DNA of 63,253 bases, filler included, from Lenisia limosa (lineage: Eukaryota; Protista; Breviatea), in the NCBI GenBank assembly GCA_001655205.1. It is 16 parts of 16 records of this genome, joined end to end, with 100 filler letters (N's around TTAATTAATTAA, not from the genome) between each part and the next. Parts side by side here need not be neighbours in the genome. Positions count along the whole stretch, not along the records: positions 11,170 to 15,793 come from LPNZ01006087.1; positions 15,894 to 23,523 come from LPNZ01010191.1; positions 23,624 to 30,147 come from LPNZ01008401.1; positions 30,248 to 32,504 come from LPNZ01007391.1; positions 32,605 to 34,312 come from LPNZ01004318.1; positions 34,413 to 35,846 come from LPNZ01001048.1; positions 35,947 to 37,446 come from LPNZ01007246.1; positions 37,547 to 42,898 come from LPNZ01005378.1; 8 more parts are not named here. One strand, given 5' to 3'. Positions within the stretch are counted from its first letter, which is position 1. Each line of letters opens with the position of its first letter. Position numbers and translations under genes: made by a program. Below the pieces are notes generated by a model. That model saw only the letters and a program-made list of their open reading frames with translations, had not been told where the DNA came from and did no database searches. Below are positions 13,942 through 61,108 of the stretch, one piece after another.

Positions 13942-14002
13942 AACGGAGTTGATTTGGGCTTGTTTGTTTCATAGAATTTCCAATTTGACTTTACTCTCCC
14001 AG
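13942..14002 (+). repeat. Family C intron-end module (representative copy)
   Basis: AAC(A/G)GAGTTGATTT(T)GGGCTT...TTTCATAG.ATTTCCAATTT..TACTC.CCCAG. Sense copies at 14954, 15586, 32144(-), 32296(-), 33117, 36868, 52189(-), 54001, 59511(-); inverted relative to the host at 34479, 35287 and partly 49195. Confidence 0.8.
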
Positions 14003-15748
14003 GCCTGCCAAACAGATTTTGTCTCGTCCATGCCACCCACTCCGGTGGTGCGATCTGAAAATAGGGGACCGCGGATCTACGGAGACTCCGCTGCTGAGCC
14101 GCCTCCGGGTGGGNNNNNNNNNNNNNNNNNNNNNNNNNNNNNNNNNNNNNNNNNNNNNNNNNNNNNNNNNNNNNNNNNNNNNNNNNNNNNNNNNNNNNNN
14201 NNNNNNNNNNNNTGTCACCTTACCACAGTATCACATAGAAGGAAGTTTTTTTTTGAGAAAGAGAAATAATATTCATTGAAACTCAAGGGAAACAAAAAAA
14301 AAATACATAGGGATACCACACAAATCACCATACAGGAAGTTAGAATATTTGTGTGCAATAACAAGAAGAATAAAACAAAAACAAATAGTTGTTTATAAGG
14401 GGTGGGATTTATCGAAAATTTCAGTCTTAATTCGAACCGAAATGAAGCCTAAAAACTAGCCACCATGACCAAACACCCACATTACCAACCCGCCTCGATA
14501 AATATCGATATTTTATCGGTTTTTTGTGAACTTATTTGTTCATGGAGAGGTGGGTGCGGTGTGGTGTTGGCAGATTATTTCCGTTATTTCTGACCTTTTA
14601 GTTGTCAAAAGAAGTGCACGCGGTTCTCGACCCTCAACTCAAAGTAGGCTTATTGTGGCAATACGATAAAGGCAGTGCAGATAAAGGAATCCGTAAACAG
14701 ATGAGTCACTCTCTATCTTAGGCCGTTCTCTTTTCATAACTTAACATTTGCTAACTCATATTAGGCAATTCTTTCTGTTTGTCATTTTCTTTTATTTATC
14801 TTATAAGGCAACTTTTGCTTATGTTTTTCTCTCCCTTCCCAATAATTGATATTTTAGGGAGTTCAGCCCGCCAAACCCATGGTACAGCGCAACCTCAGGT
14901 TGGTTGTTTTTTAATGTTTTTTTCAATTATTCAGTATTATTCACACCTCCCCCACAGAGTTGATTTGAGGTTTTTTGTTTCATAAGGTGTCCAATTTTAC
15001 CCCCCCCCCCNNNNNNNNNNNNNNNNNNNNNNNNNNNNNNNNNNNNNNNNNNNNNNNNNNNNNNNNNNNNNNNNNNNAACGATATCGCAGGCATCAGGGC
15101 CTCATCTGACTCCTCCATCCGCTCGATCAGCCCGCACCCCTAGAAACAAGGCCAAATCACCCCGTGCCGCGCCCCCCAGCCCACAGCCAACTAAGGAGAC
15201 CCCCAAGGCTATCACGCCACGTAGTGAAACTCAAAAAGTGTCGCGAAGTGAGCGTCCGCGCCAGGATACGCGTAAATCTGAGCGCACCAGCCAGGAAAAG
15301 CACCGGGAGCCGGCGTCAAGCCCCCCAAGTGGGAGGGGGTATTTCTTCGAGAGAATATTCTCTACTGCACTTATGGAGTGATATGTACATATGATTAGGG
15401 CTTCCCTACGGCCCCAAAAAAAGACCGAATCTCTCAATAAATCCTCGATATATATCGATATTTAAACGGTCTTTTTCGGATCGTAGTAAACCTCTACATA
15501 TGATATAGTATATACTATTAGTTTTATGGTGGGTGCCCTTTTGTATTTTTTTATCGATCTCTAGATTGTTTTTTAACCTGCTGTCAAAGAGTTGATTTTG
15601 AGCTTTTTTTTTTCTTTTCTTGTTTTTGTTTAAATGTTCCTATTTCACCTCTGCAGTTCTCCGCAAGCCACCGTCACGAGATAAGAAGGCCTCGCCCCGG
15701 AGTGAGAAGACCGTTCAACTCAGCAAAGAGTCGCCAAGGCAGAGGAAG
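14003..15748 (+). CDS. Ser/Pro/Arg/Lys-rich low-complexity protein fragment
   Basis: GC-rich exons 14003-14109, ~15078-15329 and 15657-15748 (e.g. KAKSPRAAPPSPQPTKETPK, ILRKPPSRDKKASPRSEK) with canonical splice sites. Confidence 0.55.
15396..15496. mobile_element. Family B MITE with perfect 8-bp TSD
   Basis: TAGGGCTTCCCTACGG...CGTAGTAAACCTCTA flanked by CATATGAT at 15388-15395 and 15497-15504. Confidence 0.9.
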
Positions 15749-15893
15749 GTCTATGGACTACCGTGATGGGATGCGGTGCTGCAGAAGCGACTGNNNNNNN
15801 NNNNNNNNNNNNNNNNNNNNNNNNNNNNNNNNNNNNNTTAATTAATTAANNNNNNNNNNNNNNNNNNNNNNNNNNNNNNNNNNNNNNNNNNNN

Positions 15894-18800: not shown

Positions 18801-21800
18801 GATGACGTCATAAGCTGGCTCGAAAAAAAAAAAAGTCATCTATGATGAACCTTGTAAAGACACGTTCCTACCTTCTTGTCCTTGCCAGTGCCAGTATCCA
18901 TAAGACCCTCCAGGAACTCCTTATACGGCTGGGTCCAGGTCTTCAAGGGGAGCTCTGTTATCTCAACGGTGATGTCGTCCAAACGCGAAATGCTGCCGCT
19001 CACATAGTAGCTGTCTGTAAGCGTCTCTTGGTTCTGAGGGGGGGGGGGGGGNNNNNNNNNNNNNNNNNNNNNNNNNNNNNNNNNNNNNNNNNNNNNNNNN
19101 NNNNNNNNNNNNNNNNNNNNNNNNNNNNNNNNNNNNNNNNNNNNNNNNNNNNNNNNNNNNNNNNNNNNNNNNNNNNNNNNNNNNNNNNNNNNNNNNNNNN
19201 NNNNNNNNNNNNNNNNNNNNNNNNNNNNNNNNNNNNNNNNNNNNNNNNNNNNNNNNNAAGGCTTCATCTGAGTCACCCTACGTTTTGACCGCGAATCTTA
19301 GTTCGGATGTTGTCAATCAGTTCATGGGGGGAATAGTTGGGGATGGATGTTGACCAGCCGGTTCCAATACCTTCAGCTCCTTGAGGGAATGAGAATGACA
19401 GGTATGAAAATTATCTACTATGCTCATTATCTGCCATGATATCATTGCTGACTCTGCAGCACCGCATCTCATTACTCCCCGCCTACCATTGACAAGAGCC
19501 ATTGGAATAACAGGCATATAGAACTTAGGCTCAATAGACTGACCATCATCATCAAGGTAGCTAGGGGAATAAAAATCATAGAAAAGTAACTGGCTGACCA
19601 AGTCAGACATCAGGGGTTGCAGTACACAAAAAAAAAAAAAAGCCCATGCTATCAATATCAACTCTTCAGTTGATAATTGTTGGTTATGAAATGACCATGT
19701 GCGTGCTTAAGTTTAATGAAGATTACGAGAAATTCTGTGTTTCTTAGTACTAGGTGTCCCTTGAAACAATCATCATCAAAAGACGCCATCCTACTCAAGA
19801 AGAGGATCATCTTCTTGACGGAAGATTTTGCGAGTGATTTTGGCGAGGTTTGTAAAGATGTAACGCGCAGAAGCAGCATCCTGTATGGCGTTAAAATGGT
19901 GGTTCAATTCCTTATCCTTAATCTTATTCAGCCAACCTTGCCGCCGTGGATGCGGGTACCGAACATACCCACAGGCTCGAGTAGGTTAATATTGTTGGAG
20001 CCGACAAAGTTCTGAGCCATGCCGACAATGGTGGATGCAAGGGACTGTTCGCCGTGATGATAGGCACTGTGCTCCGAGACATAACTAGGAGGGATTAAAA
20101 ATGGGCTACAAGGAAAGGAGGAGTACATTGGTTGTTATGAATATTCAGAAACGGCAAACTCCCTCCAACCCGGAAAGCTGAGCCACCTTAATGTCGTTCT
20201 TGAGGTTCCTCTTGAAGCATGAGAACAGGATCTTTCTTTGTCCTGGCTTGAGGCCGTCAACACCACTCGGGATAGAACGCTGGTTGTCCGCCATTGAGAA
20301 AAGAATAAGTTCCTGGGGGGGGGGGGNNNNNNNNNNNNNNNNNNNNNNNNNNNNNNNNNNNNNNNNNNNNNNNNNNNNNNNNNNNNNNNNNNNNNNNNNN
20401 NNNNNNNNNNNNNNNNNNNNNNNNNNNNNNNNNNNNNNNNNNNNNNNNNNNNNNNNNNNNNNNNNNNNNNNNNNNNNNNNNNNNNNNNNNNNNNNNNNNN
20501 NNNNNNNNNNNNNNNNNNNNNNNNCAGTATTACATCAAGGCAGACAGAGCAAAATAGCACTCTATTCATATGATGTACACACCTTATCGATGAAATCGTT
20601 GTATGAGATGCGACGAACACGCTGATCGAGATAGGTTCCTTCACGGAAGTCTCTGAGCCACTGCTTGCGGTCATCGATACTGCCAATGTAAGAGGGCGAC
20701 AAGAAAGGCCATCAAAATAATCATTTTCAGAAGATAGAAATGAAAACAAGGCTGTATCTGACAAGATATTTGAAGAGCTTTGTGAGTGCTATTGAAGTTT
20801 TCGTACCACTACTCCAAAATTGTAATAAAACCAGCTTANNNNNNNNNNNNNNNNNNNNNNNNNNNNNNNNNNNNNNNNNNNNNNNNNNNNNNNNNNNNNN
20901 NNNNNNNNNNNNNNNNNNNNNNNNNNNNNNNNNNNNNNNNNNNNNNNNNNNNNNNNNNNNNNNNNGCCATGTGTGAAGTCAATTCGGTGGTGTACAATGT
21001 CGCCGAAATACTCCTTGGCCTCTGCTGATGTGGAGGTACCCAGACCCTATAAGTGGTCAATTGCAATTTCAGCCATGCAGTCTTGGTAGTGTCAAAGCAT
21101 CTGAAGAATACTTCAATAGAAGCTATCTGGACAACGCCCATGATATTGCTCTTATACATACTACTACAATAGGCTCTAGAACAGACCTTGTAGTACTTGG
21201 TCTTCCACTTGGTATTGTCAGCAACAGTCTCCTTCCAATTATCATACTCTGGAAGGGTGTAGAACGCATGAACCTCTCGTCCCTTGGTGACCTAGATATG
21301 GGGGGGGGGGTTACCAGGGAAATTCTGATTAACTTTAGGATATTAATCAAATAATGGGCATCGATGATGAAGCGAATGTAGGTAAAAGATTGGAACAACA
21401 CCTTTGTGTGTCGCATTGTGTGATCTCTCAACCACCCACCTTGACGATGGGTGTAATGAACTCCTGGAGGAAGCCAGGAATGTGCAAGAGCTCAGGCCAG
21501 AATTTGTGCAGAAGGTTGATGATAAGCCCCTAAGATGGCAATCAGGAATGAGTAAAAAAAAAAAAATAAGAAAAAAAACCAAAACCAAAACCAAAACAAC
21601 CAAAGGCGAATACAATAAATACCCTCCCACCTTGATATGTGAGCCATCGTGATCCTGATCGGTCATGATCATGATATGACCGTAACGAAGGCCGTCAATA
21701 GTAGGGTACTTCTTGCCGTGTTGGAATCCGAGGATCTTTTTGATGTTCGTCAGCTCCGCGTTTTCAGTTACTTGTTTGATGGTCGCGTCTGCGGGTGTGA

Positions 21801-29872: not shown

Positions 29873-30259
29873 TTCTGCATATTGTGCATCTTGAGCTGGC
29901 CGCACTTGATGCAATAACCCCTGTAAATGGTTGTGTGAATCTCATAAGGAATAATATACTTTTTTTTTTGAATGTCCACAACTTATGAACTGTTGAAAAC
30001 TACGCATTCAGTCATTCACTACTCAAGAAACTCGTCGACCTAAATGACAGTTAAAAGGCATTTGAAGCAGTTTAGTCATCATATTTTATTTTATCAAAAT
30101 ATTTATTATTAGATATTACTCCGTGATTTATCAGTTACAAAAGCAGANNNNNNNNNNNNNNNNNNNNNNNNNNNNNNNNNNNNNNNNNNNNTTAATTAAT
30201 TAANNNNNNNNNNNNNNNNNNNNNNNNNNNNNNNNNNNNNNNNNNNNTATATTATTGTG

Positions 30260-30385
30260 TATAATAACAATAATAACAATAATAACAATAATAACAATAA
30301 TAATAATAATAACAATAACAATAATAATAACAATAATAACAATACAAAAATAAAAGCATAATAATAATAATAATAACAATAATAC
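30260..30385. repeat. (AAT/AAC)n microsatellite
   Basis: Imperfect trinucleotide tract at the scaffold end. Confidence 0.9.
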
Positions 30386-30427
30386 AAACAATAAAAAGTA
30401 CTCTCTCCCCTCCCACCACAGCAATAC

Positions 30428-32295
30428 ATCCTGCACGGCAACGCTCCACCACAGAGCCCAGTTTGGCCTGGAANNNNNNNNNNNNNNNNNNNNNNNNNNN
30501 NNNNNNNNNNNNNNNNNNNNNNNNNNNNNNNNNNNNNNNNNNNNNNNNNNNNNNNNNNNNNNNNNNNNNNNNNNNNNNNNNNNNNNNNNNNNNNNNNNNN
30601 NNNNNNNNNNNCACTTCTTCAGGGCTAAAGTTACCCCCGACATCGAAGGTTTCCCAGGTGCTCTCCAGTTTTTGGCTTGATTTCTCCAGGCCTGGGTTGG
30701 TGAGATGTGGAGTGAATATAGAATTGGGAGTAGCAAGAGATATTGATCTTCAAGCCATATTTGTGTTTTGTCAGTGTGATACAGCTCCCAATATATATAT
30801 ATATATGCATATATAGCAATGAGAAACCACAAGGTTGTATCTGGCCGAAGCCGTCNNNNNNNNNNNNNNNNNNNNNNNNNNNNNNNNNNNNNNNNNNNNN
30901 NNNNNNNNNNNNNNNNNNNNNNNNNNNNNNNNNNNNNNNNNATATAACTAAGAGATACCCCCTCTCACCTGACACAACATCATCAGCAAAGGACTTAAGG
31001 AGGGTCAGTCGCTGGTTTTGGGCCGCAGTGTGGGCGGCTGCAAACATCTGGAGTATGACAAACTTGTGAAAAATAAAAAAACAAAAAAAATTCTTTAATA
31101 GATAAGTATGTTACACCATTTAATAATATAAATATAAAAAACATCTCGGACCGTAATTTGGTTGTGCGTGGATGTGAGGGCAGCCAAGTCGCCGACAGAT
31201 TGAAGTGTGTTACCCAGAGCCAGCTTTCCTAAAGCGGTAAGTGTTACCTTATATATAAGGAATCGAAGAGGTCGCCTTTTAGGAAGTTTGAAAGATAAAT
31301 ATAATCGGACAGACAGACAGCTTTCCTGCCTTAGAAAGAAGATTCAAGAAATATTTGTATTTTCTTAATAGTAGCCATGAATTCTTCTTAAATTGCAACA
31401 AAAGCTTCACTTCGGTTTGAAACAGACCATTTAAATATCGATAATTTTCGAAGATTTATCGAAAAGCCCAGTATTTTTTCGAACCGAAGTGAAGACATAG
31501 CGGCAACAATACCCCCACCCACCTTGACACCATTCTTCATTATAGAGGTCTGTGAGAGTTTGCACGCCGAATTCTAACTGATCCAAGGCCTGCGGGGGGG
31601 GGGGGGNNNNNNNNNNNNNNNNNNNNNNNNNNNNNNNNNNNNNNNNNNNNNNNNNNNNNNNNNNNNNNNNNNNNNNNNNNNNNNNNNNNNNNNNNNAAGG
31701 TAACTATGATGCTGATGTAACCGTCTTAATATATTCGAGTTGTATTGTGTGGGGAAGAAGAATATTGTAAAGAAAATAGTTTTAATAAGAAAAAACTGTT
31801 CCAGAATGGTATTTCGCTTGAAAGCAGGGTGTCAATCCAGAAAACTGTCACGGACATCCGAGTCAGTTTATGGGTTGGCACTCTGCTTTAAGTGAGCGAA
31901 TATAGCATGGACATGCTTTGTTCATCTTTGAGGGTATTTGTTTTGCTGTTGTGATATATGGAAGGGGAAATGAAGAAGAACAAACTGTTCCAGAATTGGT
32001 TCTCAGCAAAACTAATGGTCTCGCATTAGGTGAGCGAATATAGCATGGACACGCTTTGTTCATCTTTGAGGGTATTTTCTTTGTTGTCAACCCCCCTCAC
32101 GGCAGGTAGTTTCGCTTCGGCAGTCTGAATGTGACGATCCACTCTGGGAGAGTAAAATCGGAAAATTTACGAAACATAGAAAGAGCCCAAAAATATTGGA
32201 GGAGTGAATACACCCCCCGGTACCGTGAAGAATGCTGTGCCAGTTGGGACAGTCGGCAGTGTACAAGGTCAGACTCGGCTCGGCCGGCGCGGGGT
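30428..32295 (-). CDS. Hypothetical protein fragment
   Basis: Exons DPAPAEPSLTLYTADCPNWHSILH|EWIVTFRLPKRNYLP, ALDQLEFGVQTLTDLYNEEWCQ, VTLTALGKLALGNTLQ...NQIT|MFAAAHTAAQNQRLTLLKSFADDVVS with GT-AG boundaries. Confidence 0.55.
31400..31499. mobile_element. Family B MITE (decayed)
   Basis: TIRs plus TATCGA core; flanks ATTGCAAC / GCGGCAAC (5/8). Confidence 0.8.
31794..32088. repeat. Imperfect intronic duplication
   Basis: GTGAGCGAATATAGCATGGACA.GCTTTGTTCATCTTTGAGGGTATTT at ~31892 and ~32030; AAACTGTTCCAGAAT at ~31794 and ~31982. Confidence 0.85.
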
Positions 32296-32604
32296 CTGGT
32301 GGGAGTAAAATTGGAAAATTTATGCAACAAACAAAAAGAAATGTCAATATACATATAGTATATCATATACAATCATATATTATTATAAACAAATATCATA
32401 TCAAATGCATATTATGTACACGCACGCAGAAAGCTGTGTGCACAGAGTTGTTTGTAAGACAAGTGATTGGGTAAATGAATATTATACATAATTCAATATC
32501 TCTTNNNNNNNNNNNNNNNNNNNNNNNNNNNNNNNNNNNNNNNNNNNNTTAATTAATTAANNNNNNNNNNNNNNNNNNNNNNNNNNNNNNNNNNNNNNNN
32601 NNNN

Positions 32605-34276
32605 CCTAACCCGCCTCCCGCTCCGAAAATGATTGCTTCGCCCACTCCGCTGTCCGCTCCAGTAGGAGTGCAAACTACCCCTTCACAAGCCGCTGCGGCT
32701 CCAATGGTCAAGTCCCCCCCTGGTTTGTTTATGTTCGGTTATCTTTCCATGGAGGTACCATAAGACCAGGGATGGTGATCTGACCATCACCCTAGCTAGC
32801 TATCTTTTCATATACTTTTCCAATTCTCAAAAAATAACAAACAACATGATCTTTCTGTCTCTTATTTAGAGGACTCCATGCAATTGAGAAATGTTCTGTA
32901 AAATATGAAGTGATATCGATAGATGGTATCTCAGAATAGCCTTAAACAAGTACTATATATCATTTACATAAATCCTAAACTTCAAACAAAGCCCATAGTC
33001 TCAACTAACATCCCATCTCTTCATTATTCCACTACAACCAAAAAAACCCCTAATTTTTCTGTTTTAGAGATAAGCTGAATTTAATATTCATCATTAAAAT
33101 GTCTTCAAGATCAGTCAACGGAGTTGATTTTGAGTTTTTTTTTATTATGATTGGTTTTTTTTTTTTTTTCTCAATAATTTTCCATTTTTACTCCCCCAGG
33201 AGGCTGCAATTTGTCCCAAATCAGCAACTTCATCACCGAATCCCCCCAACAACCCACACCAAGCCAAGCTGAGGTTATAGTCCTTGATGAATCCCCACTG
33301 CCGCCACCAAAGCCCCCAACGCTCTCATCAGTTCCCCCTGTAACAACGCCCGAAACTCCTAATGCGCTCTCTCTCATCCCCCTCGACCCCGCGCCCCCTT
33401 CGAAAAAGAACATTTTGTCCGAAGATGACCCGTTTGTATCGAGTTTAGCCGACTTCAATAAGGCTTCAGTCGTGATTACGTCGCAATTCACACCAAAGAG
33501 CCTTCCTGGAAGTATGCATCTTCAGTATTCTAAGTCTTGACCGATTTTCTTTGGGAAATTATTGAACAAATCGGTCAAGACTTATCTCGGTTACTGTATA
33601 TTAATAGTAAAACTCGGTTAGTGTATAATTATTATAACTATTATTGTTTTACAATGCTATCATATGATATGGCATATCTAACGAGTCATCTCTCACCACC
33701 CCTATCAAGTACCCAAAATTCACGTTTTCAGTTTCGGGCATTCCCCCAATCACGTCATCTCTCCTCAAACCTGCGCCTCTCACGTCCACGTCACTCTCAG
33801 CGCCCAATGGCACGCAGCCGCCCGTTATCCCGTCCTTGGTCACGCATCCCCCCATCAACATCAGTGACCCGCCCGTCTTCACACCAGCCTTCCCGCCCAA
33901 GCTTTCTGACAAACCGTCTGGTCTGAACGGCAAAATCGAGCCAATTCTCGCGATTAAAACTGAGGCACGTTCTGGGTGTGGGAATGCTAGTAAACTTGGT
34001 TGTCAACAGGAGAACAAAATGGAGGTGAAATCCGACGGCAATGAGCATGACGTTGAGACACAAGTGAAAAACGAGGAGTCAGCTGATATTAAAACTGAAA
34101 TTAAAACTGAAATTAAAACTGAAATTAAAACTGAAATTAAAATCGAGGTCAAACCAGAGTGTTTGGAGAGCCTGATTCCAGGCGTGGCTAATAGGGAATT
34201 AAAGAGAACCATTGAACAAAAGCCCCTTCTCTCTGCGTCGCCCCCATTTGAGGAAGATTCCGTGCCCGTTTTACAA
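32605..34276 (+). CDS. Pro-rich disordered protein fragment with an IKTE repeat array
   Basis: Exons ~32605-32720, 33200-33511 and ~33731-34276; ORFs 33211 and 33836 of the track. 12-bp repeat ATTAAAACTGAA x4 at 34088-34135. Confidence 0.6.
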
Positions 34277-34555
34277 GTGAGTTTTGAAATGTATCAGTTT
34301 ATTTGGGTTTTTNNNNNNNNNNNNNNNNNNNNNNNNNNNNNNNNNNNNNNNNNNNNTTAATTAATTAANNNNNNNNNNNNNNNNNNNNNNNNNNNNNNNN
34401 NNNNNNNNNNNNCCCCCCCCCCCCCCCATTACCATTCTTTACTATTGTTTTGTTGCTCTCAACCCTCTTGTGCTAGGCAACAGAGTTGATTTTGGGCCTT
34501 TGTTTAATAAATTTACCCACCCCCCTTGCTACCCCTCGTTCACAACCCGACCCAC

Positions 34556-36184: not shown

Positions 36185-36305
36185 GCCAGCATCCACCTTC
36201 GATATTCAGCCAACTTATGAGATTCAAGTAAAATATCGCTATTTATTTTATCGAGGATTTATCGTTTAAGCGGATGTGAAGCCCCCCTAATTGTCACGTT
36301 TTCAG

Positions 36306-37446
36306 GGTGCCTTGGCGTTCCTTGCCTTCCCGACTCAAAAGACCGTGAGCATATCTGATATTGGTGCCGTCATAGCGTCGCACCATTTCTCGGTGAGCTT
36401 TTTCAAAAAACAAATGTATTGAATAAAAGACAAGGGAAACAAATACACATATTTGGATCATATGTCAGGGGGAAGCGTGGTATGTGTGAGAGCAAAAATA
36501 TGTACTTGTACGCAGTACGTTGTTCTACATTTAATCATAGAACAAATTACCCAATTCCGTGCTTCATAGCTTCACATCGCTTCTGGGTGAGTGTTTTCTT
36601 GGTTTTTTTCTTTTTTGTTATTTGATTCAAATTACTTCACCGTTTTTTCTTGTTTATTTCACCTCACCCCACGCCCCACTTTTTTTTTTTTTGAAGTATT
36701 ACTATTTGTCCTTTGTTTCTCTGTTTTCTCCACTGCTCCTCGAAAACTATCAATATTTTCCGGGTATTTTTTGAACCGAAGTGAAAAGCTACTCTCACAA
36801 TTTTTCCGTCGTTTCAATTTGAAACCCCCACCCCTTTTGTTAATATGGGCTTTTTCGAACCTCAGCTAACAGAGTTATTTTGAGCTTTATTTTGTTTCAT
36901 CCATTTTCCCAGGCCACGATCACGGGCATGGATGTTTGTGACAGCGGGAGGCGACTCACGGCCGTTCTTTCAAGCCACGTTGCAGCCTCGTTTGAAGTAG
37001 GCGGTTTCGAGGGTCAAATATTTGGGTTTGTTTGTTTTAATTTGGAGAATAATGAATGTAAAGCCACATTAGGATCGTTCAGATCTCACGGATTATATAC
37101 TGATATGTGTGGAAAAATCATATTCTTCTAAAGCAAGGTGATAATTCAAAAAATTGTCACGGATGCTGTCAGAACGGCTTCTTTGAAACGAATTACTTTT
37201 TTTGTTGATAACTACCTGTTACTTCATTTTGGAAGACTCCAAGCTTTGGCGTCAAATCAATCACATTCAAAATGCGCCATTCTTAGGGAAAATTGAATTT
37301 TCTGAATTACCACCCTGCTTTAAAGAACCTAAAACCATATTCTGATCTTTCAGATCTCTTGGCCCGGAGAGCCAGTATCAATTCTAGCCCCCCCGGACGG
37401 CTACGAGTTTACCACCCATGTCCGGTCGCGGGACGGGCCAAAATCC
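36306..37446 (+). CDS. Hypothetical protein fragment (possibly beta-propeller-like)
   Basis: GALAFLAFPTQKTVSISDIGAVIASHHFS|ATITGMDVCDSGRRLTAVLSSHVAASFE and a further GC-rich exon at ~37354-37446. Confidence 0.45.
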
Positions 37447-43090: not shown

Positions 43091-46000
43091 GCTGCCAAGA
43101 GAGGAGCGGTTCTCTTCTTTGTGCTCTCTGAGCTTTGTGGTGTCAATCCCATGTATGTATACTCTCTGCACAGCTACTTGGACATCTTCCGCCTCTCTCT
43201 CAAGAGGTCTCTGCACGACCCGATGCTCATGACCAGGTTTGAGAGACCCGATGCTCATTGGGCTTTGTATCAACTAACCACCTTGATCTGAACATCCCCC
43301 TATGCTTAAGAGCGCTTCCCTACGTTCCGGAAAAGACCGTTACAATATCGATATTTATCGGTATTTATCGAGGATTATTGAAATTCAGTCTTTTTTTCGA
43401 ACCGAAGTGAAGCCCTAATTTTACCCCCCCCCCCCCCNNNNNNNNNNNNNNNNNNNNNNNNNNNNNNNNNNNNNNNNNNNNNNNNNNNNNNNNNNNNNNN
43501 NNNNNNNNNNNNNNNNNNNNNNNNNNNNNNNNNNNNNNNNNNNNNNNNNNNNNNNNNNNNNNNNNNNNNNNNNNNNNNNNNNNTAAAAGATGATGGTTGG
43601 AGCTTTCGAAGGTATCCCCTGCTCTGACGCCCAGGTCAACGACGAGAAACTCTGCACATCCGAACTGTCGTTCTTCTTAAGAGGAAACACGGCTCTCACG
43701 CGGTCGACTCGTGGCAACCCCTTCCTGTGGCTGTCTACCCAGGTGCGTGGTCTTGTAAAGAATTTAGTCCTAGTATCCATTCAACATGTAAAGGTAGTCC
43801 TAGAATCTAGAGCTTCACTTCGGTTCGAAAAAAGAATTGCTCATTAAATCCTCAATGATTATCGATATTTTGCCGTTCTTTTTCGAACCGAAGCGAAGCC
43901 CTAATAGTATCCATCCATTCGACACAGTTTGGACCAAATTGACCTTGGCCAGGGTTGGGAGGACCTCATCCAGCTCACCACCGTGTCGCCTTCGTTCGAG
44001 ACCATCATTGAGGACATGGAGGCGGCCCCCCGCGAGTGGCAGGAGTGGGCTGCTGGAGACACACCCGAAACCGTGGACATGCCGCAGGTGGGCTTGGGGT
44101 TGTTCATCGAGAAATTTGGTCTTTTTATGGAACTGTTAAAGTAAGAATCACTGGTGATGCGGACTAACATTTTCAGGACTACTCGAAGAAGCTGAGTTCC
44201 ATCCAATGTCTTTGCCTCACTCGCTGCATCAGAAGAGACAGGGTCTACTACGCTGGTGCGTCTTTTGGCTTATCGTCTTATTATCTCTCAATTAGCCTAT
44301 TCTCTTCCCATTATCTTCTGTTGGAGCCTATTTTCTTCTCATTATCTTCTGTTGGAGCCTATTCTCTTCCTATTATCTTCGTTGAGACTATTCTCACGTG
44401 TGTTGTCAGCCAACAGNNNNNNNNNNNNNNNNNNNNNNNNNNNNNNNNNNNNNNNNNNNNNNNNNNNNNNNNNNNNNNNNNNNNNNNNNNNNNNNNNNNN
44501 NNNNNNNNNNNNNNNNNAACTTCGTTATTGAGAATCTGAGTGAGCAATACGTCCGGCCACCGATCCTTAACTATGACCTGCTCTTCGAACAGTCCGCGCC
44601 TGAGACCCCCGTTGTGTTCATTCTCAGCCCGGGTGCTGGTGGGGGGGTGTGGTAGATAAGCATGTCATGGCAATATTGATGGCTTGTTGTTCAATATATG
44701 TATATATGTAGCTACATGTACATATATATTATATGCAGTACCTTTTGCTCATCACTGAGCGTCACCCCAGGTCTCATTATAACTTCGTAGACCCCGCTGG
44801 CGATATCGTGGCAATGGGCGAGCAGATGGGCTTCACTGGTAACCGTTTGAAGGTACCTGGGTTTATTATTCAGTCTGTCTATATTTAAGTATGATGGCTT
44901 CGGCCAGATACAACGTTTTTAATTTCTCATTTCTATCTACTAGATAGTTTTAAAAATACCCCTTAGCCCTTATAGATGTTATTCTCTCTTTCTCTTCTCT
45001 GACATATTTTGGTGTTTTTTACCGAGGATATTTGACTTGACCCAGGGGATATTGGGTGATGGATGCCCAAAGGCATTTTCTGACCCTCCTTTGCCCATAG
45101 GCAGTTCCTGACCCTCCTTTGTCCAAAGGCAGTTTCTGACCTTTTAGACAATTGCACTTGGCCAAGGCCAGGGACCACTTGCTCTGCAGCTGGTAGAGAC
45201 AGGCCGCACCCGAGGCCAGTGGGTGGTGGTGCAGAACTGTCATCTCATGCCGGCATGGGTCAAGCTGCTCGAAAAGAAACTCAGCAAGGTTGGCGCAATA
45301 CCCCAGGAAAAGGACAGCCTTACCCTTATTGCTTGTTTTTTTTTTTGTTTTTTTTTNNNNNNNNNNNNNNNNNNNNNNNNNNNNNNNNNNNNNNNNNNNN
45401 NNNNNNNNNNNNNNNNNNNNNNNNNNNNNNNNNNNNNNNNNNNNNNNNNNNNNNNNNNNNNNNNNNNNNNNNNNNNNNNNNNNNNNNNNNNNNNNNNNNN
45501 NNNNNNNNNNNNNNNNNNNNNNNNNNNNNNNNNNNNNNNNNNNNNNNNNNNNNNNNNNNNNNNNNNNNNNNNNNNNNNNNNNNNNNNNNNNNNNNNNNNN
45601 NNNNNNNNNNNNNNNNNNNNNNNNNNNNNNNNNNNNNNNNNNNNNNNNNNNNNNNNNNNNNNNNNNNNNNNNNNNNNNNNNNNNNNNNNNNNNNNATTTT
45701 TCCATTTTACATCCCCCATTGACCTGGTTATTAACCGCCATTGCAGCGGTCCTTGAAGGTTGTGACCGAACCACCCAATGGGCTGAAGCTGAACCTGCAA
45801 GCGTCATTCAGCAGACTCAACCAGAGCATCTTCGACCGATGCCCACATCCACTCCTTCCGAGCCTCGTGGGGGGGGGGGNNNNNNNNNNNNNNNNNNNNN
45901 NNNNNNNNNNNNNNNNNNNNNNNNNNNNNNNNNNNNNNNNNNNNNNNNNNNNNNNNNNNNNNNNNNNNNNNNNNNNNNNNNNNNNNNNNNNNNNNNNNNN

Positions 46001-48309: not shown

Positions 48310-51300
48310 GTTTGACTCGTAGCACCATGAGCATTGGGATTTAGTGAAGCATGAGGCACAGGTCATCTCTGACTCGCAATGTGTTAACGTCTGGGGGTGA
48401 TTATATTCAAACGTTCGGGCCCCATGGCTTTTTTGGTTCATAAAATGTGGCATATAGTACAAACCATGTAGTAGTTAAACGCGCCATTTTCTCCTGTTTT
48501 TGAAGGGCCTGTATTTGCAATAGCGCTGATCATTCCGGATACCTGAGGAGGGGGGGGGGGGGNNNNNNNNNNNNNNNNNNNNNNNNNNNNNNNNNNNNNN
48601 NNNNNNNNNNNNNNNNNNNNNNNNNCCAGCAATCTATGAAACAATAATAAAGAAATGAAAGTCCATGTAAGAAACTATATCACCCCCAAAATATACACAT
48701 ACTTCAAATAAACCAAGCCCACCATCGACCACTCCATTGATGACATGCCCCAAGTAGCGATGATGCCTCCACCCCCGCCGCCGCCTAAGAGGGGGGTGAT
48801 TGGAAAAGATATGATTTTTTTTGGAAAAAATTAGGGAACATAATAAAATAGGCCTAAATCAACTGACATTTTCAGCAGAAGTGCAAGTATAATGGCGAAA
48901 AATTATAAGAGTTATGAACAAAGCAAAACTATGCACAATTGAAATAATAAATTACAAACCCAGTTACAAACAAACCTGTAACACCGTCCATATAAGGTGC
49001 CCCTCCAAGGGCTTTGATATCGCCAGTGGTCACTGAATAGGATTCCGACTGGAGAGTGAAGAGGTGATTCTTGTGAAATGTCGAAATGTCGACATGGGAG
49101 TGCCCAGCCAAAGCCGTACATACCATCACAAAATGAATATTCCTTAATATTCGGTTGGATAGTCTTGCCAAACAAAATTGACTAAAAATGCAATCTGTGC
49201 CCCTCCTTCATTTTAACTCCCCCCACCTCAATTTTAATGCTACCTCCGGCTCCGGATCCGCCGACTGTTCCCGTCGTGGCCGACATAGAACCGACTTCTC
49301 CTGCGGGGGTTATATNNNNNNNNNNNNNNNNNNNNNNNNNNNNNNNNNNNNNNNNNNNNNNNNNNNNNNNNNNNNNNNNNNNNNNNNNNNNNNNNNNNNN
49401 NNNNNNNNNNNNNNNNNNNNNNNNNNNNNNNNNNNNNNAAATCCCCAACTCTGTGAGATGAAATAGCCCGGGGGATACAAACCCTTTGCAACAAAATCAT
49501 TCAGAATGCATGACCGTTGCATCCAGCAAACCATCAGCACGAACGGGTCCATAGAGTTCAAGAGAATAGGTGTATATCTCAATGATACCTCCTCCACAGC
49601 CTCCTGCAGCTACAAATGTTAAAAAATGGAACATTAATACGAAAATGAAAGATAAGGCCAAGAATTCTCCAAATTCGTCTCTGTGTACCCCAAGTAACAG
49701 TATTATACCTTAGGCTTCATTAAAGACAGGATTTCTCAACAATCCTCGATAAATATCGATAAATATCGATAACTTCTTCCTCTATTTCGAACCGGAGGGA
49801 AGTCCCTCTATTTCGAACCGGAGGGAAGTCCCCACAATAAATAGCACTGAATCGACCTGAAAAAATTGGAAAAAGAATTACCCTCCCCCCCTCAACAATG
49901 TACACCCTCCTCCTACCTAAACCTACACTGGTTCCGGAGCCACCCGCACTCATTGGCCAGGCCGGGTCATCGAAAGCCCCGCGGTGAGACGAGAACTGGT
50001 GTGTGAGTGTAAATCATGTAAGATAGCTTGGGCTAAACAGTTAATGTCTATAAAAATGAAGAAAAATGTGAATTGTATTTTAGGAGAATTGTAATATCAA
50101 AATAAAGGGCATAGTGTGAGAAATATAATATCAATGAAGTAAGCTGGGAGACTGGAGTAAACTATTAATTCACTCAATCATTTGATAACACTGTTTAAAC
50201 AGCTTACTACATGCCCCTAGCATACAAAGGGAGAGTTAGCAAGAGTGTTATTGCCTCCGTGGCCTCCATGGGCACCACCCATTCCTCCAAGAGCACCGTC
50301 AATAGGCACACCGTCTCCTTCGTTGGGCTGGGGGAAGGGGAAGGGAGATGTTAGAGGTCTAATGGTAAATAAAGTTTTCTGTGGTATCGAAACGTACTCG
50401 CATCAGCAATATCATATGATAGGTAGTCCTATTGAGATAAGAAATCAAACAAGGCTGTCTCTGGCCGAAGCCGTCCCCACCATCACGCTTATCATAGAGA
50501 TTTAAAAGCACCCCCCCCCCCNNNNNNNNNNNNNNNNNNNNNNNNNNNNNNNNNNNNNNNNNNNNNNNNNNNNNNNNNNNNNNNNNNNNNNNNNNNNCGT
50601 TTTTGCTGTCACGTTACAAAATCCCATTTTCAAACTCCTTTTATATATTGTTAAGACCAACCTCGGGCAGTCCGGGGATCAAGGTAACGTAGAAGTTGCC
50701 TCCTCCACCTGAAGCCTGAAGGTAGTTAAATAAATGCAGCTTCATGCATGATGAAACGAAACAATTGTCTTTAAATTTGGTACTGTGAAGAAAGGAGAAC
50801 AACTAATGATGAAATCACAGATTTTGGGTATTAATATAGGAGAATATAAATTATAGATTTTGTCAATAATTATATACTTTCATATTAAATGATAAATATC
50901 GATTAAATTACAGATGTTGATCCTAGAACATATTTCCAACATAACCCCACCTTCAACCCTCCTGATGGACCAACATACCCCCACCTTCAACCCTCCTGAT
51001 GGACCAACATAACCCCACCTTCAACCCTCCTGATGGACCAACATAACCCCACCTTCAACCCTCCTGATGGATCAACATAGAACGTCTGGCTGTTGATCAC
51101 AATGTGTCGGGCCAAAATTTCAGCGTAGATTTTAACTTCTCCAGTCTACNNNNNNNNNNNNNNNNNNNNNNNNNNNNNNNNNNNNNNNNNNNNNNNNNNN
51201 NNNNNNNNNNNNNNNNNNNNNNNNNNNNNNNNNNNNNNNNNNNNNNNNNNNNNNNNNNNNNNNNNNNNNNNNNNNNNNNNNNNNNNNNNNNNNNNNNNNN

Positions 51301-52743
51301 NNNNNNNNNNNNNNNNNCACCAGAATAGTAAACAACAAAAACCTATAGCTTGAAATTATGAGGCAGCATAATAACGTATGATTATGAAACCCCAAAATAG
51401 CATTGCATATGAGGAAAACAACCCAAAATCAACCCAGAATAGTACAAAATAGCATATACATACATATGCATATGAATAATATAAACAACCCAAAATAGCA
51501 TATACAAACATATAGTACATGTACAGTACAACAATCCAAAATCAACCCAATATAGATTATCAACAACCCAGCTCACCGCTTCAATGGTCACGGTATTTGC
51601 AGTGATAGGCCCGTTAATTGAGACGTTTACTGCCATAACTACAGGAGATTAATATAGAAAGACAAAAACAAGGTTGCATCTGGCCGAAGCCATCCAACCA
51701 TCCCGCTAGTGAGAGATATTGTAATCCAGTTACCAAGTATAATTTAGTTCAAAAACCACGAAGCCGCTCACTGTTAACATTCATAGCCGCAACAGTGGCT
51801 AAAGTAACGGTCGGAGCTTCCACACTCAGATCTCCAGTGATGCTCAATTCAGCTCCAAGCTGAGGTGAGTTAATATTGTAGGTAAGGATAGAGTGAATTA
51901 ATCAGAGTGTAATGCTTAGGGATTCCGCACGGTCCAAAAAAGACTGAATTTCTCGATAAATCCTGGATAAATACCGATATTTGACCGCTCTATTCCGTAC
52001 CCCCCCCCCCCAAANNNNNNNNNNNNNNNNNNNNNNNNNNNNNNNNNNNNNNNNNNNNNNNNNNNNNNNNNNNNNNNNNNNNNNNNNNATGATCCTTGCT
52101 GAGATGGTGTTCTGCCAACGATGTGCGGTCGGTTGTAGGATAAGAGATGCGTTGATCTAGGAGGTTAAAATGCAGATAGGACGTTGATCTGGGAGGAGGG
52201 GGGTAAAATGGGGAAATTTAAGAGAGAAAAAAAAGCCCAATTCGACCCTGTTGCCTGACACCACACGAGAAGAGATAACAACAAAACAAATAAAGCCAAG
52301 GCTGGGGTGGGGGAGGGGGGGTTTAAACGGAGGAAGCCAATTGAAAACTGATAACATATTCCACACTTTACAGAACTGATAGTAGCACCCTCCCCCCCAC
52401 AGACACACACACATATGATATGTCAATATAAATTAATCACATCGCAGAACTGACAAAAATATACCCACTTCCACACTTTACACAATTGATAAAACCCCCA
52501 TTCAGTATATCGCAGAATTGATAATACCCCTCCAAACCGACCATAATAAAATCACTGAAGAACTGAAGACAGCTCAATACTAATGATACTTTGAATAGCC
52601 TGTGGTCTTCACACCACACTTTACAGAATTGATAGTACCCCCACATTCAGCACATCGCAGAACTGGTAGTACCCGGCAATAGTCAGGGGCTTGTTGATGG
52701 TCAGGTCAGAGAAGACGATTTCTGAACCCTCGTGTGTTGTCAT
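48310..52743 (-). CDS. Gly-rich repeat surface/secreted protein with a PSI-like Cys domain (fragment)
   Basis: GGMGGAHGGHGG, WPMSAGGSG, AGGCGGGIIEI, GGSGAGGSIKIE, GGGGGGGII repeats, followed by CESEMTCASCFTKSQCSWC (C..C..C...C.WC). Confidence 0.7.
50937..51080. repeat. Intronic minisatellite, 34-nt unit x4, starting at a splice donor
   Basis: CAACATAACCCCACCTTCAACCCTCCTGATGGAC tandem copies with no spacers. Confidence 0.92.
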
Positions 52744-53179
52744 CTGGAGGAGGTAAGAAATAAATAAATGGTGACCCATATCCAGTTGAGTTATGATCAA
52801 ATATAGAATGTAACCTTTGTGTAGGTCGGGGGGGGGGGGTAAATGGTTGATATACAGNNNNNNNNNNNNNNNNNNNNNNNNNNNNNNNNNNNNNNNNNNN
52901 NTTAATTAATTAANNNNNNNNNNNNNNNNNNNNNNNNNNNNNNNNNNNNNNNNNNNNGCATGAGAGTCACCGCAAGTCACGACACCCAAATTCAATCTGT
53001 AATTCCGAGGTTCCGCGTTCCGCCATTTTTCATTCAAGGAATCTGACCTATTTAAGCAGAAATTCCTCTTCGGTTCGCCCTTTTGAATAGCCAGAATATT
53101 AACTCGGTTAAATTCCGCAGTGTTAGCGTGATAAAAACGTGTTAGACCAACCCCTGGTTTCCCTCCCTTCTCTCCAGCG

Positions 53180-56100
53180 ATGGCCTCGTACCCCTCCGGA
53201 GCCTCTTATGAGTACGCTGCTATATTTAAGTGTTCTGAAGAGCTTTAACAGTGTCATAAGTCCGTCACTGCCCTATCAGTCTTCCATTGCATCTGTTTCT
53301 GAACCTCTAGGGAGCTCCAGAAGTGGTTTCAAGAGAACAAAGACCTCCTCAGGAACGGCACTCCTGGTGATGCTGTGTCCTTCGTGGACTACACCCACTC
53401 TATCATGGTGGGTAACAACTTCTGCAGAAACGAATTCTCTTTTGGATCTCATTCTTTCATTGGATTTCTGCTGCTCTATACTTCTTCTGATAGTGGATGT
53501 TGAGCTTTTTTCGCTATTTACATGCTCTTATTCACCATCTTGATAGTCACTCATACTTACTGTGTTGGATGATAGTCAGTTTGAGTTTACTTGTGAACAT
53601 TATGTCACGGAGACGGATTTCCATTTGACCAGCTTAGGACCGCGTCCAAGGCATTAGAACGTTGGCCAACTTCAAATCCAAGGCCATGAATGAGAAAGTC
53701 GAAAAGGTGGGACTGGGCTGCAATGGTTTGGAATGTCACTACCCGAAACGATGGGTGACGAATAGAGATTGGTTATTATTTCCATGTATCCTCGTCACTT
53801 TCACTCGCAAAAAGAGAATTATCATTTGCTTAGAGCATACACAATTGCCAAGCATAATCCCCCCTCTTATATTCTCAACTTAGCCAATAGTGTTGATTTA
53901 TTTGAGGGGGATGTCATTGATAAGAATTTGCGGTGCTGCAGAAGCGAGTGGCCTGTGCTTTTCATTGTTTTGTTGTTATCAACCCTTGTGTTGCTAGCCG
54001 ACAGAGTTTGATTTGGGCTTTTTGTTTTTACCCCCCCCCCCCAGAAAGTCCTGGACTCCATCACGTGCGCCTTCAGACCCGGCCGTATGGTGCTTGTCTC
54101 TGGCATGCCCGGTGAGGGGTGGTGTTGTTAATTTAAGGGAGAGGGGTGGTGTTGTTATTTTAAGGGAGAGGGTATTGGGTTCGTGTTGACTTATGTGAGG
54201 GAGGTAATGAACTTTCAATATCCAACTGAAATTACTGCCATCACAGGATCCGGCAAGTCTTCTCTTCTTCAGGCTGCGGCAGGAAGAATCCCAGCCACGG
54301 TTTGTCGTGATGATACGAAATACCACATTATATAAAAGCTCAGCATCCCCAGTATCCTTACCACATCTGACATTACCATGGCCTTTCTTGAAAGCAATTG
54401 ATGATATTATGTGAGTTCAACTCACCTCATTAGTCGGGAGAGGTCAGGCTGAATTGCCTCAAGATGCCCATGACCTACAAGGCCGAATCTTCATATGTCT
54501 CTCAGCGTGACGTGCATTTGTGTGAGCTTGGGTCACCTGTGAATATCGATACTACCAGGCTATTTTGGAGGCTGCTCTTCTTTTGTGTTGTTTACTTGCT
54601 GTTTTTTTTTTATGAGTATTGCTGAACTCTGAGCTTTACTGCGTTTTGGTACCAATGTGGGACCGTACGGACCAATGCGGTGGCTGACTCCTTAGCCACT
54701 TTGACTGTACGCGAAACCCTGCTCTTCTCTGCACGCTGTCGTTTCAGTGCCACATCCACCAACGATGAAATTAATGACATGGTGGGTTATTTTTAAATAA
54801 TACTTTCAAATGTGTTCTTGTTGTTATGACTCTTTTCATTATTTTAATCCAACATCCGATAGGTGTGATGTGTGGAGGGCTTCGGCCGGATACTACCATA
54901 TTATTTTTTTCTCTTTTCGACCTGTTTCCAAAGAAGTTCAATTTTTTTATTGGGACATTCAGTTTTTCGCATGTCTAATTTTCATTCGTCATTTGCCATA
55001 ACCAGACAGGTGGACATCATCATCCAAATGCTGAACCTGAAGAGCTGTGCTGAATCGCTGGTTGGTGACGAGACCATTCGAGGCATTTCTGGTGGAGAGA
55101 AAAGACGGCTTTCTATCGGTTTGCTTATTGTCTGTATTGCTCAGAGTCTGCTCCTTCCATCCCTCCTTTTAAGAAGCCGAAGCAGCCCTCTAACGCTTTT
55201 AGGCGTGGAAATGGTCCTGGGGTCGCGGTCATTCTTCTTTGACGAGCCCACCAACGGCCTTGACGCGAACGCAGCGCTGGAGGTGGGAGGGATACTCAGA
55301 TGGTACAGTCGTATAAGTCCTCGATATTGAGATTGAAACCAGTCTCTTTAGAAGTTATTCGAAGTAATAAAAATGTAATACCGCATTTCTGATCCCCAGT
55401 TATATCCAGTATGACCCCCCAGGTTCTTAAGGCATTGAAGGCCGTCAGCAGCCTCGGATACCCTGTTGGAGTCGTAATCAAACAAGCAAGTGACCAGGTG
55501 AGTAGTCTGACGTCAGCTCATAGGTCACTCGCCTCCCCCCCCCCCCCNNNNNNNNNNNNNNNNNNNNNNNNNNNNNNNNNNNNNNNNNNNNNNNNNNNNN
55601 NNNNNNNNNNNNNNNNNNNNNNNNNNNNNNNNNNAAATATCAATACCCCTCTTGTCTCTTCCAACCTCTCCCCTGCATATTTTCCCATGACCCCCCAGAT
55701 GATTGAGCTTTTCGATGACGTGGCTCTCTTGACACGTGGCAAACTGGCTTTTTTCGGCCCCCTGCAGGCCTGTCTCAACCATTTCGAGGGTCTTGGTCTC
55801 TGTATCCCCGCCCTCTCCACAAAGGCTGAATTCTTTGGTTGGCAGGATACTGGGTCTTCGGTGGACTGAGGGACAATTCGAAATTAGTCAAAGCATCATA
55901 TTATATTGGCTGTGTTTGTTGTACAAAATGAGAAGGTATCCAATTTGGTAAAACAATCATACTACCATGTATCAAGGATACAGTTTACAACGTTTTCTCC
56001 CGCTCTTTAATGAGTCATATTGGTGGTCTTTAACAGCCCCAGAGGAAGTCACGGAGTGGACCGCTAAATATGGCAAAACACCGAGTGCCACTGCCCTCAC

Positions 56101-57715: not shown

Positions 57716-59094
57716 GTTGGGGCACCTTGCGTTGAACGCGTTTGATTCGGAATAATTAGTCTGTAANNNNNNNNNNNNNNNNNNNNNNNNNNNNNNNNNN
57801 NNNNNNNNNNTTAATTAATTAANNNNNNNNNNNNNNNNNNNNNNNNNNNNNNNNNNNNNNNNNNNNCCGCCGATATCTGACAATTTATCATATAATAAAA
57901 CAGACTTACTCCAAATAGAATATTATTTCCCCAAATAGAATTAATCTGTTAAGCATATTACCCCTAGTTCCGCCCCCATAATCCGTGTAGTGTGACTCTG
58001 AGCACCCCATGAACAACGTTATGGATATCATCGCCCTCACCGCGACCCTCATCTCCATTATCGTCGTGGAAGTATCAATCTTAATGATCCACGATGCTCC
58101 CCTCGGTATTCGGGACCCCCCCGAGGAAATCGAGGAAGATGGCCGCCATTGGATGGCATATGAAGCTATATGATCTATGATACACTATCTCCCCTTTCCC
58201 ATGCTGAAAATAGAATGAGATTAGGTTCTCACTTCTCGTGACTATGAATGTGTTGGTCAGTTGTTTTCATTTTAATGTATTCTTACCTTTCTTCAAACAC
58301 CTGAGTCAAATAAAAGTTGGAGTATTAGTTTTTTTGAACATTTTTATAACAATTTGGGAATCAAATGAATCAAATACTGTATGCTATAATATTAGTTTTT
58401 CGCCTAGAAAACCCCAAGTTTTCTTGGGAGTGGTTTTGGTGTTTTCAAGGTGCTTGCCGAAAACTCCAAAGAAAACCACAGAAAACGAGGGGAATTAGAC
58501 CGAGTCAGGATTTTTCTATTCCAGGTTAACATTGGAAAATAGTATTTAAAGATGGGCGAAGTAGCCTGACGTGTTTGCCAATGAAGAGACTCCTCGCTAC
58601 TCAACTGATGCAAACGCAAAACAAAAAAAATCCCCAAGTAGATAGAAAGCAGGAAAAATTGGATAAGCTACAGTGTAATAATAAATAAGTTGTAAAAGTT
58701 CTAGGGGTAATNNNNNNNNNNNNNNNNNNNNNNNNNNNNNNNNNNNNNNNNNNNNNNNNNNNNNNNNNNNNNNNNNNNNNNNNNNNNNNTTTGGATAGTA
58801 TTTCTTTCAAAGAAGAGTCTTATTTATTTCTATCACTCTCAGAAACTCAAGCCAATGCATAATACCCCTCAGAAAAATCCAACATCTCCATAGTCACAAG
58901 CACGAAGGCAAACGGCCAATTCAGCCAAGATCAGAGATTGCACAATCGTTCGGTCAAACAGTAGGGACAAAGGGTTTGGAACTGAACGACTGTTTCACTT
59001 TTCGAACGCTTTCGTCCACTCGCTGCTGTGTGAGTTGAATTGTTATTTTGAAAAAAAAACCCAATTCTGAACAACGTTTCAATCACATAACTAC

Positions 59095-59191
59095 GGGCTT
59101 CACTTCGCTTCAAAAAAAGACAGAAATTCTCGATAAATCCTCGAAAACTATCGATATTTCCACGGTTTTTTCGAACTGAAGTGAAGCCCTA
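59095..59191. mobile_element. Family B MITE
   Basis: Clear TIRs; flanks ATAACTAC / GTAACTCC (6/8). Partial copies also at ~12315, 14405, 14495, 36230, 36735, 44104, 49735 and 51917. Confidence 0.85.
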
Positions 59192-59510
59192 GTAACTCCC
59201 TCCAACATTCAACGTTTCAATCATGTGATGCACGACAGTGAGAGCATCCCCATAGTTTCCTGAAGCAACTGGGGCTATAATGTAAAAGGCTAAATCATGG
59301 GAGGAGCTAGGATAGGGGCAGATGACAGCTAAAATAGAGCTGAAATGTAAATGGCAAATAATCATCAGGACAAGTCTTTTTTTTACCANNNNNNNNNNNN
59401 NNNNNNNNNNNNNNNNNNNNNNNNNNNNNNNNTTAATTAATTAANNNNNNNNNNNNNNNNNNNNNNNNNNNNNNNNNNNNNNNNNNNNACCGAATAATCT
59501 GAAACGTAGT

Positions 59511-61108
59511 CTGGGGGAGGGGGAGAGAGAGAGAAAAATAACCCAAATTAACTTTTTTGGATCAGCATTTGACGAAAGAATTTTCGATTGGGGGGAGGGG
59601 GTGAAACAAAGGAATGAAATGAACATAAACAAACACACAAAATCAAATATTCCGGCAAATCTTTGGGGCGGGNNNNNNNNNNNNNNNNNNNNNNNNNNNN
59701 NNNNNNNNNNNNNNNNNNNNNNNNNNNNNNNNNNNNNNNNNNNNNNNNNNNNNNNNNNNNNNNNNNNNNNNGCGAAGATAGAAAAAAGCCAAAAAAGATG
59801 ACATTGGGGTTTCAATGGCGAAATCCAATTAACCTGTTCTGAAGCACCTATTTTGATTAATGCCGTTGTTTCGGAATTATAAATCTTCTTAAGGGTAGTG
59901 TTGTCGGAACACTGACGATCCCCTCATACTGCAGTCAGACTTGGAAACCAAATCAATATGATATCGCAGAGAACTCGGGAAGCAAACAAGAAAAGTGGTC
60001 AGGCCAATACGCCCAGTTCCTGGACCTAATCGCCATGGCTGTTTGCCCTTTTCTTGGCTCTGTGGTTAAAGATGAAGATATTCGGCCTGGTTAATGCGTT
60101 AGATAAGAGCCCTTTGCTCTTAGAGCGATTTGAACGTTGTTTGCCCTTTTCTCAAACAGCTAATGACATAAAAGGGAGCAATTTTTGGGGTGCAATAAAG
60201 ACTTAAGCAGTTGGGGAGGGGGACTAATGTTGTAGAAATCAACTCTGGTACTTATGAATTAGCGCCTCACCCGATTCTCCACTTGACACCGACCTACTGA
60301 CGCTTCAAGATCAACAGAGTATGTGATGGTATTAGAGTATATAGTATTCAAGCTAAGTCCACCTATGATGACTTTCAGCTGATACTGTGAGCCTTCGTTG
60401 CTTCTTTTGAACATTTGATGCTTTTGCTGCAACAGCAAGTAATACATTCAGATTCTCCATGTGCTTGATAAGGGATCTTGATCTTGCAATCAAAGAGTGG
60501 ATACCATGACCTCGTTGCCTTTCACTTCAAGGCCAAGACTCTTCTGTAGTGGGATCCGCAATTTACCAGGGTTTTGTCAAGGAGGTTTTTTCCGTTGCGC
60601 AGGGGTAGAAGCTTTTCACTGCATGGTACTTCGCAGCTGCCGGGAGGTATGCCGAAGGTGTTTGGGTTCCGTCTCTTGAAACTGACAAAGCCCATTTATA
60701 AGCCTTGGAATTGCCCTCGGGTAGGTCCCATCCAAAGAATATAAGCACTATGAATTAAAGCAGCGTACCAAATTCAATCAGGCTCGAATAAATGTCAAAA
60801 AAGTACTGTTACCTTCCATCGCCATCTCCGTATTACGGTTTTGCCGACCATTGCGAGCTGCTCAAGTTGGAAAATCCCACGCACGAGGCTCTCCGTCGTA
60901 TTGCTGAAAATACCTCCCTTCCTGTCTTCACTATTTTCTTAATCTTGTTTACACCGAATGGCTTTTTGTTTCCCGCCATTTCAAGATGGTCGTTTTGTAT
61001 TTCCAATTTCTCTTCAATTCGACATTTTCCATATTCCAATGATCCTGCCACCGACATGCGTGCTGTGGGAAAGCTTGGGGTCTTGGTTTTGGCCTCACTC
61101 ACCGAGCA
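59511..61108 (-). CDS. Hypothetical multi-exon gene fragment
   Basis: Minus-strand C-rich acceptors at 59511 and ~59590, and exon-like blocks (KSLGLEVKGNEVM; ARMSVAGSLEYGKCRIEEKLEIQ). Phases not fully resolved. Confidence 0.35.

Follow-up and report, generated by a model that had tools for sequence, protein, structure and literature searches.

A repeat arm of probable transposon origin at predicted splice acceptors of the breviate Lenisia limosa

A repeated sequence that extends to the boundary of introns in unrelated genes may have created these introns, or it may have taken over splice sites that were already present. This question is raised by a stretch of 63,253 nucleotides from Lenisia limosa (the window, i.e., the whole stretch of DNA that was analyzed), in which an earlier note described a ~60-nt module, here referred to as family C, as the terminal inverted repeat (TIR) of an intron-generating transposon. 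Repeat similarity that extends to the intron boundary is also a property of the introners of Micromonas, Aureococcus and Symbiodinium (excerpts of PMC9860276, PMC12130899 and PMC11282704). In PMC12130899, it is the filter by which secondary insertions are excluded, so that family C could pass this filter on the 3′ side.

The window is eukaryotic and intron-rich. It is composed of 15 pieces, between which a 12-nt linker is embedded in runs of N. Of the 63,253 bases 6,078 are N, and because many of the N gaps start or stop in G or C runs beside splice sites, assembly gaps hide many intron ends. Genes found in the window encode topoisomerase II, a class III cyclase (Pfam, E 6e-10), a dynein heavy chain (7e-10) and, with a weak score (0.041), an ABC transporter. 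The splice sites discussed below are predicted (acceptors from open frames), and the training set of the intron predictor comprised 20 donors and 17 acceptors from the same window. The background set consists of 66 hand-picked, arm-free introns, from which predicted junctions that looked wrong or missed one end were excluded; 57, 60 and 61 of these were sufficiently free of N for individual tests. The genome-wide view is that given by contigs of a DNA run (X2) and an RNA run (X1) on two stretches of the window. On these stretches the X1 contigs covered no exon and so showed no splice joint, which reflects missing coverage and does not speak against splicing.

The cyclase (35817-34556, minus strand) has four predicted exons, one of which (35197-35145) is 53 nt long. 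Joined together they contain no stop, and they can be aligned with four bacterial cyclases. Where these homologues have GDAY/GDSY the Lenisia protein has GHSY, and ET..Q.AS.LE is found for DT.N.ASRME; its class III domain is probably catalytically degenerate. Homologue searches with the NMD3 and ABC exons gave no match, searches of PDB sequences with two cyclase exons returned nothing useful, and a viral scan with one cyclase exon yielded no relative.

Position of the repeat in introns

All 12 main copies of family C were recovered in leave-one-out tests, in which a profile made from the remaining 11 scored each copy at 9.8-37.2 bits, compared to a top score of 6.2 bits in 10 locally shuffled windows. 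The nine sense arms with visible ends (13942, 15586, 32144, 32296, 33117, 36868, 52189, 54001 and 59511) all stop at an AG, where 32144 has a second candidate AG 2 nt further on, and the end of the tenth sense copy (14954) is concealed by an N gap; the location at acceptors described earlier is borne out for nine predicted acceptors. For the seven sense ends in introns of known length, all of which are found at most 15 nt from the AG, the probability of such an arrangement by chance is ~1e-8, assuming uniform placement in introns. The reverse complement reported after two cyclase donors was also seen: the copy at 35287-35337 begins at position 8 of its intron (last exon base 35345), and that at 34479-34526 begins ~30 nt past the donor at 34556. 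From a partial inverted copy proposed at 49195-49226 a borderline match over 49214-49226 is retained (p=0.05 vs shuffles), and another, proposed at 10055-10075, gave no profile match at E<10; it coincides with the edge of the tandem repeat of 20 nt. The copies are listed in Table 1 together with the other repeats of the window.

Table 1. Copies of the family C element and other repeats in the window
Feature	Position	Strand	Basis
Right arm to predicted acceptor; C-tract directly left	13927..14002	+	profile, C-tract test
Right arm ending inside N gap; left edge with acceptor-like tract and AG	14954..15010	+	profile
Diverged right arm to predicted acceptor	15583..15656	+	profile
Element head ~12 nt past candidate donor; cut by linker gap	15761..15793	+	head similarity
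Head from ~position 10 of 107-nt topoisomerase II intron; no 3′ arm; no added codons	19453..19477	-	
Short right arm to predicted acceptor of 80-nt intron	32144..32194	-	profile
Short right arm to predicted acceptor	32296..32345	-	profile
Right arm with T-run expansion, to predicted acceptor	33113..33199	+	profile
ATTAC after a C-run; may be the right terminus of another inverted copy inside gap	34413..34432	+	inference
Middle and arm, inverted relative to cyclase gene, ~30 nt past donor 34556	34445..34526	+	profile
Inverted right arm in cyclase intron 35344-35198; retains CCCCATC; no added codons	35287..35337	+	profile
Internally shortened right arm to predicted acceptor; C-tract on left	36863..36912	+	profile
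Arm start in dynein intron, remainder in N gap	44397..44416	+	weak profile match, E 7.3
Sense right terminus ~23 nt before dynein acceptor; retains CCCCCAT..AC (unfused state)	45696..45723	+	unscored by family profile
Possible short inverted end merged with donor G-run, doubtful	49214..49226	+	p=0.05
Middle and arm to predicted acceptor; intact-looking acceptor directly left	52189..52300	-	profile
Sole copy with head, middle and arm; ends at ABC-transporter acceptor	53915..54044	+	profile, X2 contigs
Diverged arm ending in AG; C-tract on left	59511..59566	-	profile, 9.8 bits
Older arm start in ABC intron	53883-53907		
Middle fragment outside predicted genes	11337-11372		
Family A hits (and 9 more)	2420-2590, 7830-7980, 39995-40145		
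Family B copies	1826-1940, 15396-15496, 31400-31499, 35534-35633, 43310-43417, 43808-43903, 59093-59191		
Tandem repeat, 20 nt	10068-10147		
Tandem repeat, 9 nt	30251-30400		
Tandem repeat, 12 nt (coding, IKTE)	34115-34145		
Tandem repeat, 34 nt	50936-51071		

The strict position and orientation at acceptors is what would be expected of an extended 3′ splicing element of the host with no transposon origin. We consider such a host signal very improbable, because the sequence is found in only ~11 introns of the window and is absent from the 66 curated ones, is contiguous with a sharp-ended head (see below) and also occurs in inverted copies. Furthermore, family C does not resemble a structured RNA: there were no Rfam matches at the gathering score, and none of the four copies examined showed a stable fold above shuffles (z -0.02 to 0.97).

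The introns of this genome display a G/C polarity that the earlier note proposed to explain by family C. In the 66 background introns, starts are G-rich (38% vs 16% in the interior) and ends are C-rich (44% vs 18%), and donors are variable at +3/+4 with G at +5 in 63/66, where both the polarity and the donor figures are partly circular because the introns were hand-picked from the output of a predictor trained on the same window. Since these introns are free of the arm, family C is not needed to explain the polarity.

The element to which the arm belongs

The family reaches ~85 nt further to the left than the module originally described. At 54001 the arm is preceded by a T-rich middle, common to the copies at 34479 and 52189, and further to the left by a head that is 91-95% identical to 15763-15793 and 19453-19475. 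Of the eight X2 DNA pieces listed, four start in this head (53929-53932), include the arm and end at 54022-54029. At 53929, 46 X2 contigs diverge from the window; their consensus ends TAGTGATGGGA, and there is little agreement among contigs in the flank outside this head end (0.47 overall). Head and arm constitute one element, the left end of which is sharp. Because this left end differs from the arm to which it is linked, and because the inverted termini probably comprise only ~10 bp, we regard family C as the right arm of a high-copy element ~145 nt in length and not as a TIR, as had been claimed.

Three right ends that are not located at acceptors extend CCCC with ATC, ATTGAC or ATTAC, and the loose-end consensus behind 35334, which is mostly C and weak (agreement 0.39), has ATCA and CATCAC. 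We infer that the element has the termini TAGTGATGGG and CCCATCACTA, that the right terminus ends in TA and that the length is near 145 nt; no copy in the window has both termini intact. The inverted termini of ~10 bp (TAGTGATGGG) are probably hAT-like, where the left end is based on the 46 contigs and the right end partly on the three window copies and the loose-end consensus. The left end also fits (T/C)A(A/G)NG, the hAT terminal pattern.

Elements of the hAT type have short TIRs and 8-bp target-site duplications (TSDs) (excerpts of PMC3517528 and PMC3942097); the criterion for short TIRs in hAT MITEs used here was 5-27 bp. Like the hAT MITEs Mar of Drosophila and the short copies derived from BuT2, as described in the same excerpts, the element is short, non-coding and high-copy, with an AT-rich interior and probable ~10-bp termini. 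Unlike these MITEs, its copies are concentrated at splice acceptors, and no TSD or intact right terminus was seen in the window. The earlier proposal of an origin from a non-autonomous DNA transposon is likely right, and family C is a real, high-copy, transposon-derived feature of intron ends.

The summed X2 depth relative to single-copy sequence, which is not strictly comparable between the two parts and is not a copy number, was 2,400-4,200x for the head and 3,000-6,700x for the arm. These values indicate that copies of the element number in the order of thousands. On the head-bearing stretch, 505 DNA contigs (X2) were found vs 2 RNA contigs (X1). In one frame the head at 15767-15793 (plus strand) reads MGCGAAEAT, which resembles an N-terminal lipidation motif; as only two RNA contigs matched the head, this resemblance is probably a coincidence. 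Exact-pattern scans of viral, metagenome and prokaryote contigs gave no match to the element, nor did the family profile match any of 76 fetched topoisomerase II loci.

Another repeat of the window, family B, represents a typical hAT-like MITE: it is palindromic and ~100 nt long, has TAGGG termini and is flanked by 8-bp repeats. Among seven paired copies the identity of the 8-bp flanks is 0.59 vs 0.33 when cross-paired, with 8/8 in one copy, and it is only for this family that an 8-bp TSD was found in the window. The summed depth of family B exceeds 14,000x single copy.

Tests of intron creation

An old introner would explain the data if the whole ~145-nt element entered exons and became intron, with the TA and a flanking G forming the acceptor, and one of the ends in each intron was later erased by insertions and deletions. 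We regard this scenario as possible but rather unlikely. It accounts for the presence of an element end at the splice site, an introner feature seen at the predicted acceptors of all nine visible sense ends, and for the heads and inverted ends near donors, which point in the expected direction. Against it stands the observation that both element ends were found in none of 12 introns of the window: there was no head at the donor in nine sense-arm introns, no arm at the acceptor in the single head intron and no reversed head at the acceptor in two inverted introns. In the topoisomerase II intron with a head, the 3′ end was considered as a possible decayed arm but rejected, as its score of 21.4 falls within the background (at most 40.2; arm introns 46.8-99.4).

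The flanking sequences also speak against the intron-generating role given to the family in the earlier note. An in-register TSD, defined as an 8-mer match of at least 6/8, was found at none of 10 element-linked junctions, and the introns show no general TSD signal at offsets -14 to +11. Off-register matches of at least 6/8 were found in five of 10 introns, vs 17% of permuted pairs, at offsets -20, -13, +8, +13 and +15. Only one of these, in the ABC-transporter intron, fits a known introner type: a 7/8 8-mer repeat would add 12 nt in frame (a possible insertion of four residues in the ABC protein), which is the size reported in an Aureococcus family (excerpt of PMC9860276). The probability of one 7/8 match among 10 introns is ~0.11. 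The donor of this intron is weakly like the head (p=0.08). The element copy itself (53915..54044) is confined to the last 130 nt of the 338-nt intron.

Added codons could be tested in two introns, the head-bearing one of topoisomerase II and the one of the cyclase that carries an inverted arm, and there are none in either. The topoisomerase II junction has the same spacing as 67/67 motif matches in the 76 loci, which are mostly uninterrupted and, judging by match length, distant genes, and the cyclase junction shows no gap relative to four homologues. In addition, the left end of the element has T at +5 in both registers vs G in 63/66 background donors, and the X2 consensus has C rather than G directly to the left of the head. 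From this comparison, the left end would be unable to supply a donor of this genome unless it was mutated, and no donor among the 66 background introns carried a general head-like signal (p<=0.02). As in Symbiodinium-type introners, the element appears to supply a 3′ splice signal, but unlike introners it is found at one boundary per intron only, with no TSD geometry and no element-derived donor.

A proposed takeover of existing acceptors

The reading that we favor, at about an even chance, is that family C is the arm of an old hAT-type miniature transposon of ~145 nt, the sense copies of which inserted in existing acceptor tracts and were then fused with these. A stranded C-tract (at least 7 C in 10 nt, at most 45 nt to the left of the arm) was found in five of 11 sense copies vs none of 27 matched intron windows (p=0.0009), in a post hoc test with edges set by eye, and in two copies (14954 and 52189) this tract still ends in AG. 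Such stranded tracts favor insertion at pre-existing acceptors followed by fusion. A branch A is found at -10/-11 in five of nine arms, compared to a background mode of -9/-10 (24/61 introns), and introns that bear an arm are longer than those of the background (median 328 vs 140, p=0.005).

We propose that a transposase encoded elsewhere in the genome would mobilize the element, the right end of which, with its yTnAy motif and C-run, would mimic the acceptor of this genome. A sense copy in mid-intron would therefore be purged as a cryptic acceptor. A copy landing in an acceptor tract, by contrast, would split or duplicate this tract and be tolerated. Slippage between the C-run of the element and the native C-run could then delete the terminal ATCACTA and restore the native distance between branch point and AG, and deletions would wear the copy down from the left. 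Near the G-rich donors, both the G-rich head and the inverted ends would be tolerated.

Purging of cryptic acceptors from mid-intron positions in this genome is also suggested by family A. This high-copy repeat of introns is ~160 nt long, contains a small GGCC hairpin and lacks clear inverted termini. Relative to the gene in which they are found, 11 of its 12 copies share the same orientation, and it is the strand thus avoided that has a CCCCAG acceptor motif at its end. An orientation bias of intronic transposons in mammals has likewise been attributed to cryptic acceptors; in contrast to mammals, where all classes are depleted beside donors and acceptors, the family C element is concentrated there (PMC3446317, in excerpt, for the mammalian data).

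Several observations argue against a takeover. The head is missing from all five copies that have a stranded tract, and each of the deletions would need to have stopped near the left terminus. Moreover, two of three heads and one or two inverted ends are found at most 15 nt from donors, as predicted for an introner, and in two arms the branch-to-AG spacing is -15 and -16, which matches an unfused terminus followed by a flanking G.

In another scenario, the transposon would have seeded some acceptors, after which the arm alone spread between intron ends, either copied into C-tracts by break repair or through reverse transcription of excised intron RNA primed at a G-run of the opposite strand. 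This route, which we find improbable, would fit the right end fixed at AG together with ragged left ends, the acceptor copies that have no terminal motif, the native tract split on the left without a head and the ratio of arms to heads in the window of ~4 to 1. It is countered by X2 depths of head and arm (not strictly comparable) that are of the same order, and by the fact that erosion from the left under selection for the acceptor yields the same shape. Taken as a general statement, i.e., that the arm is a self-spreading acceptor module that homes into 3′ splice-site C-tracts and has rewritten thousands of acceptors without adding introns, the idea is quite unlikely; if true, it would represent turnover of splice sites by a mobile element as well as a source of false introner calls.

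The window contains ~11 arm-bearing acceptors in 57 kb of called sequence. If it is typical, a sizeable share of the acceptors of this genome would be transposon ends, and an element concentrated at acceptors would be the reverse of the exclusion zones described for mouse. We found no genome-wide case of such acceptor takeover in the literature covered. If the window is typical, repeat similarity up to an intron boundary need not signify intron gain, and family C offers many natural replicates for distinguishing the creation of introns from the takeover of their splice sites.
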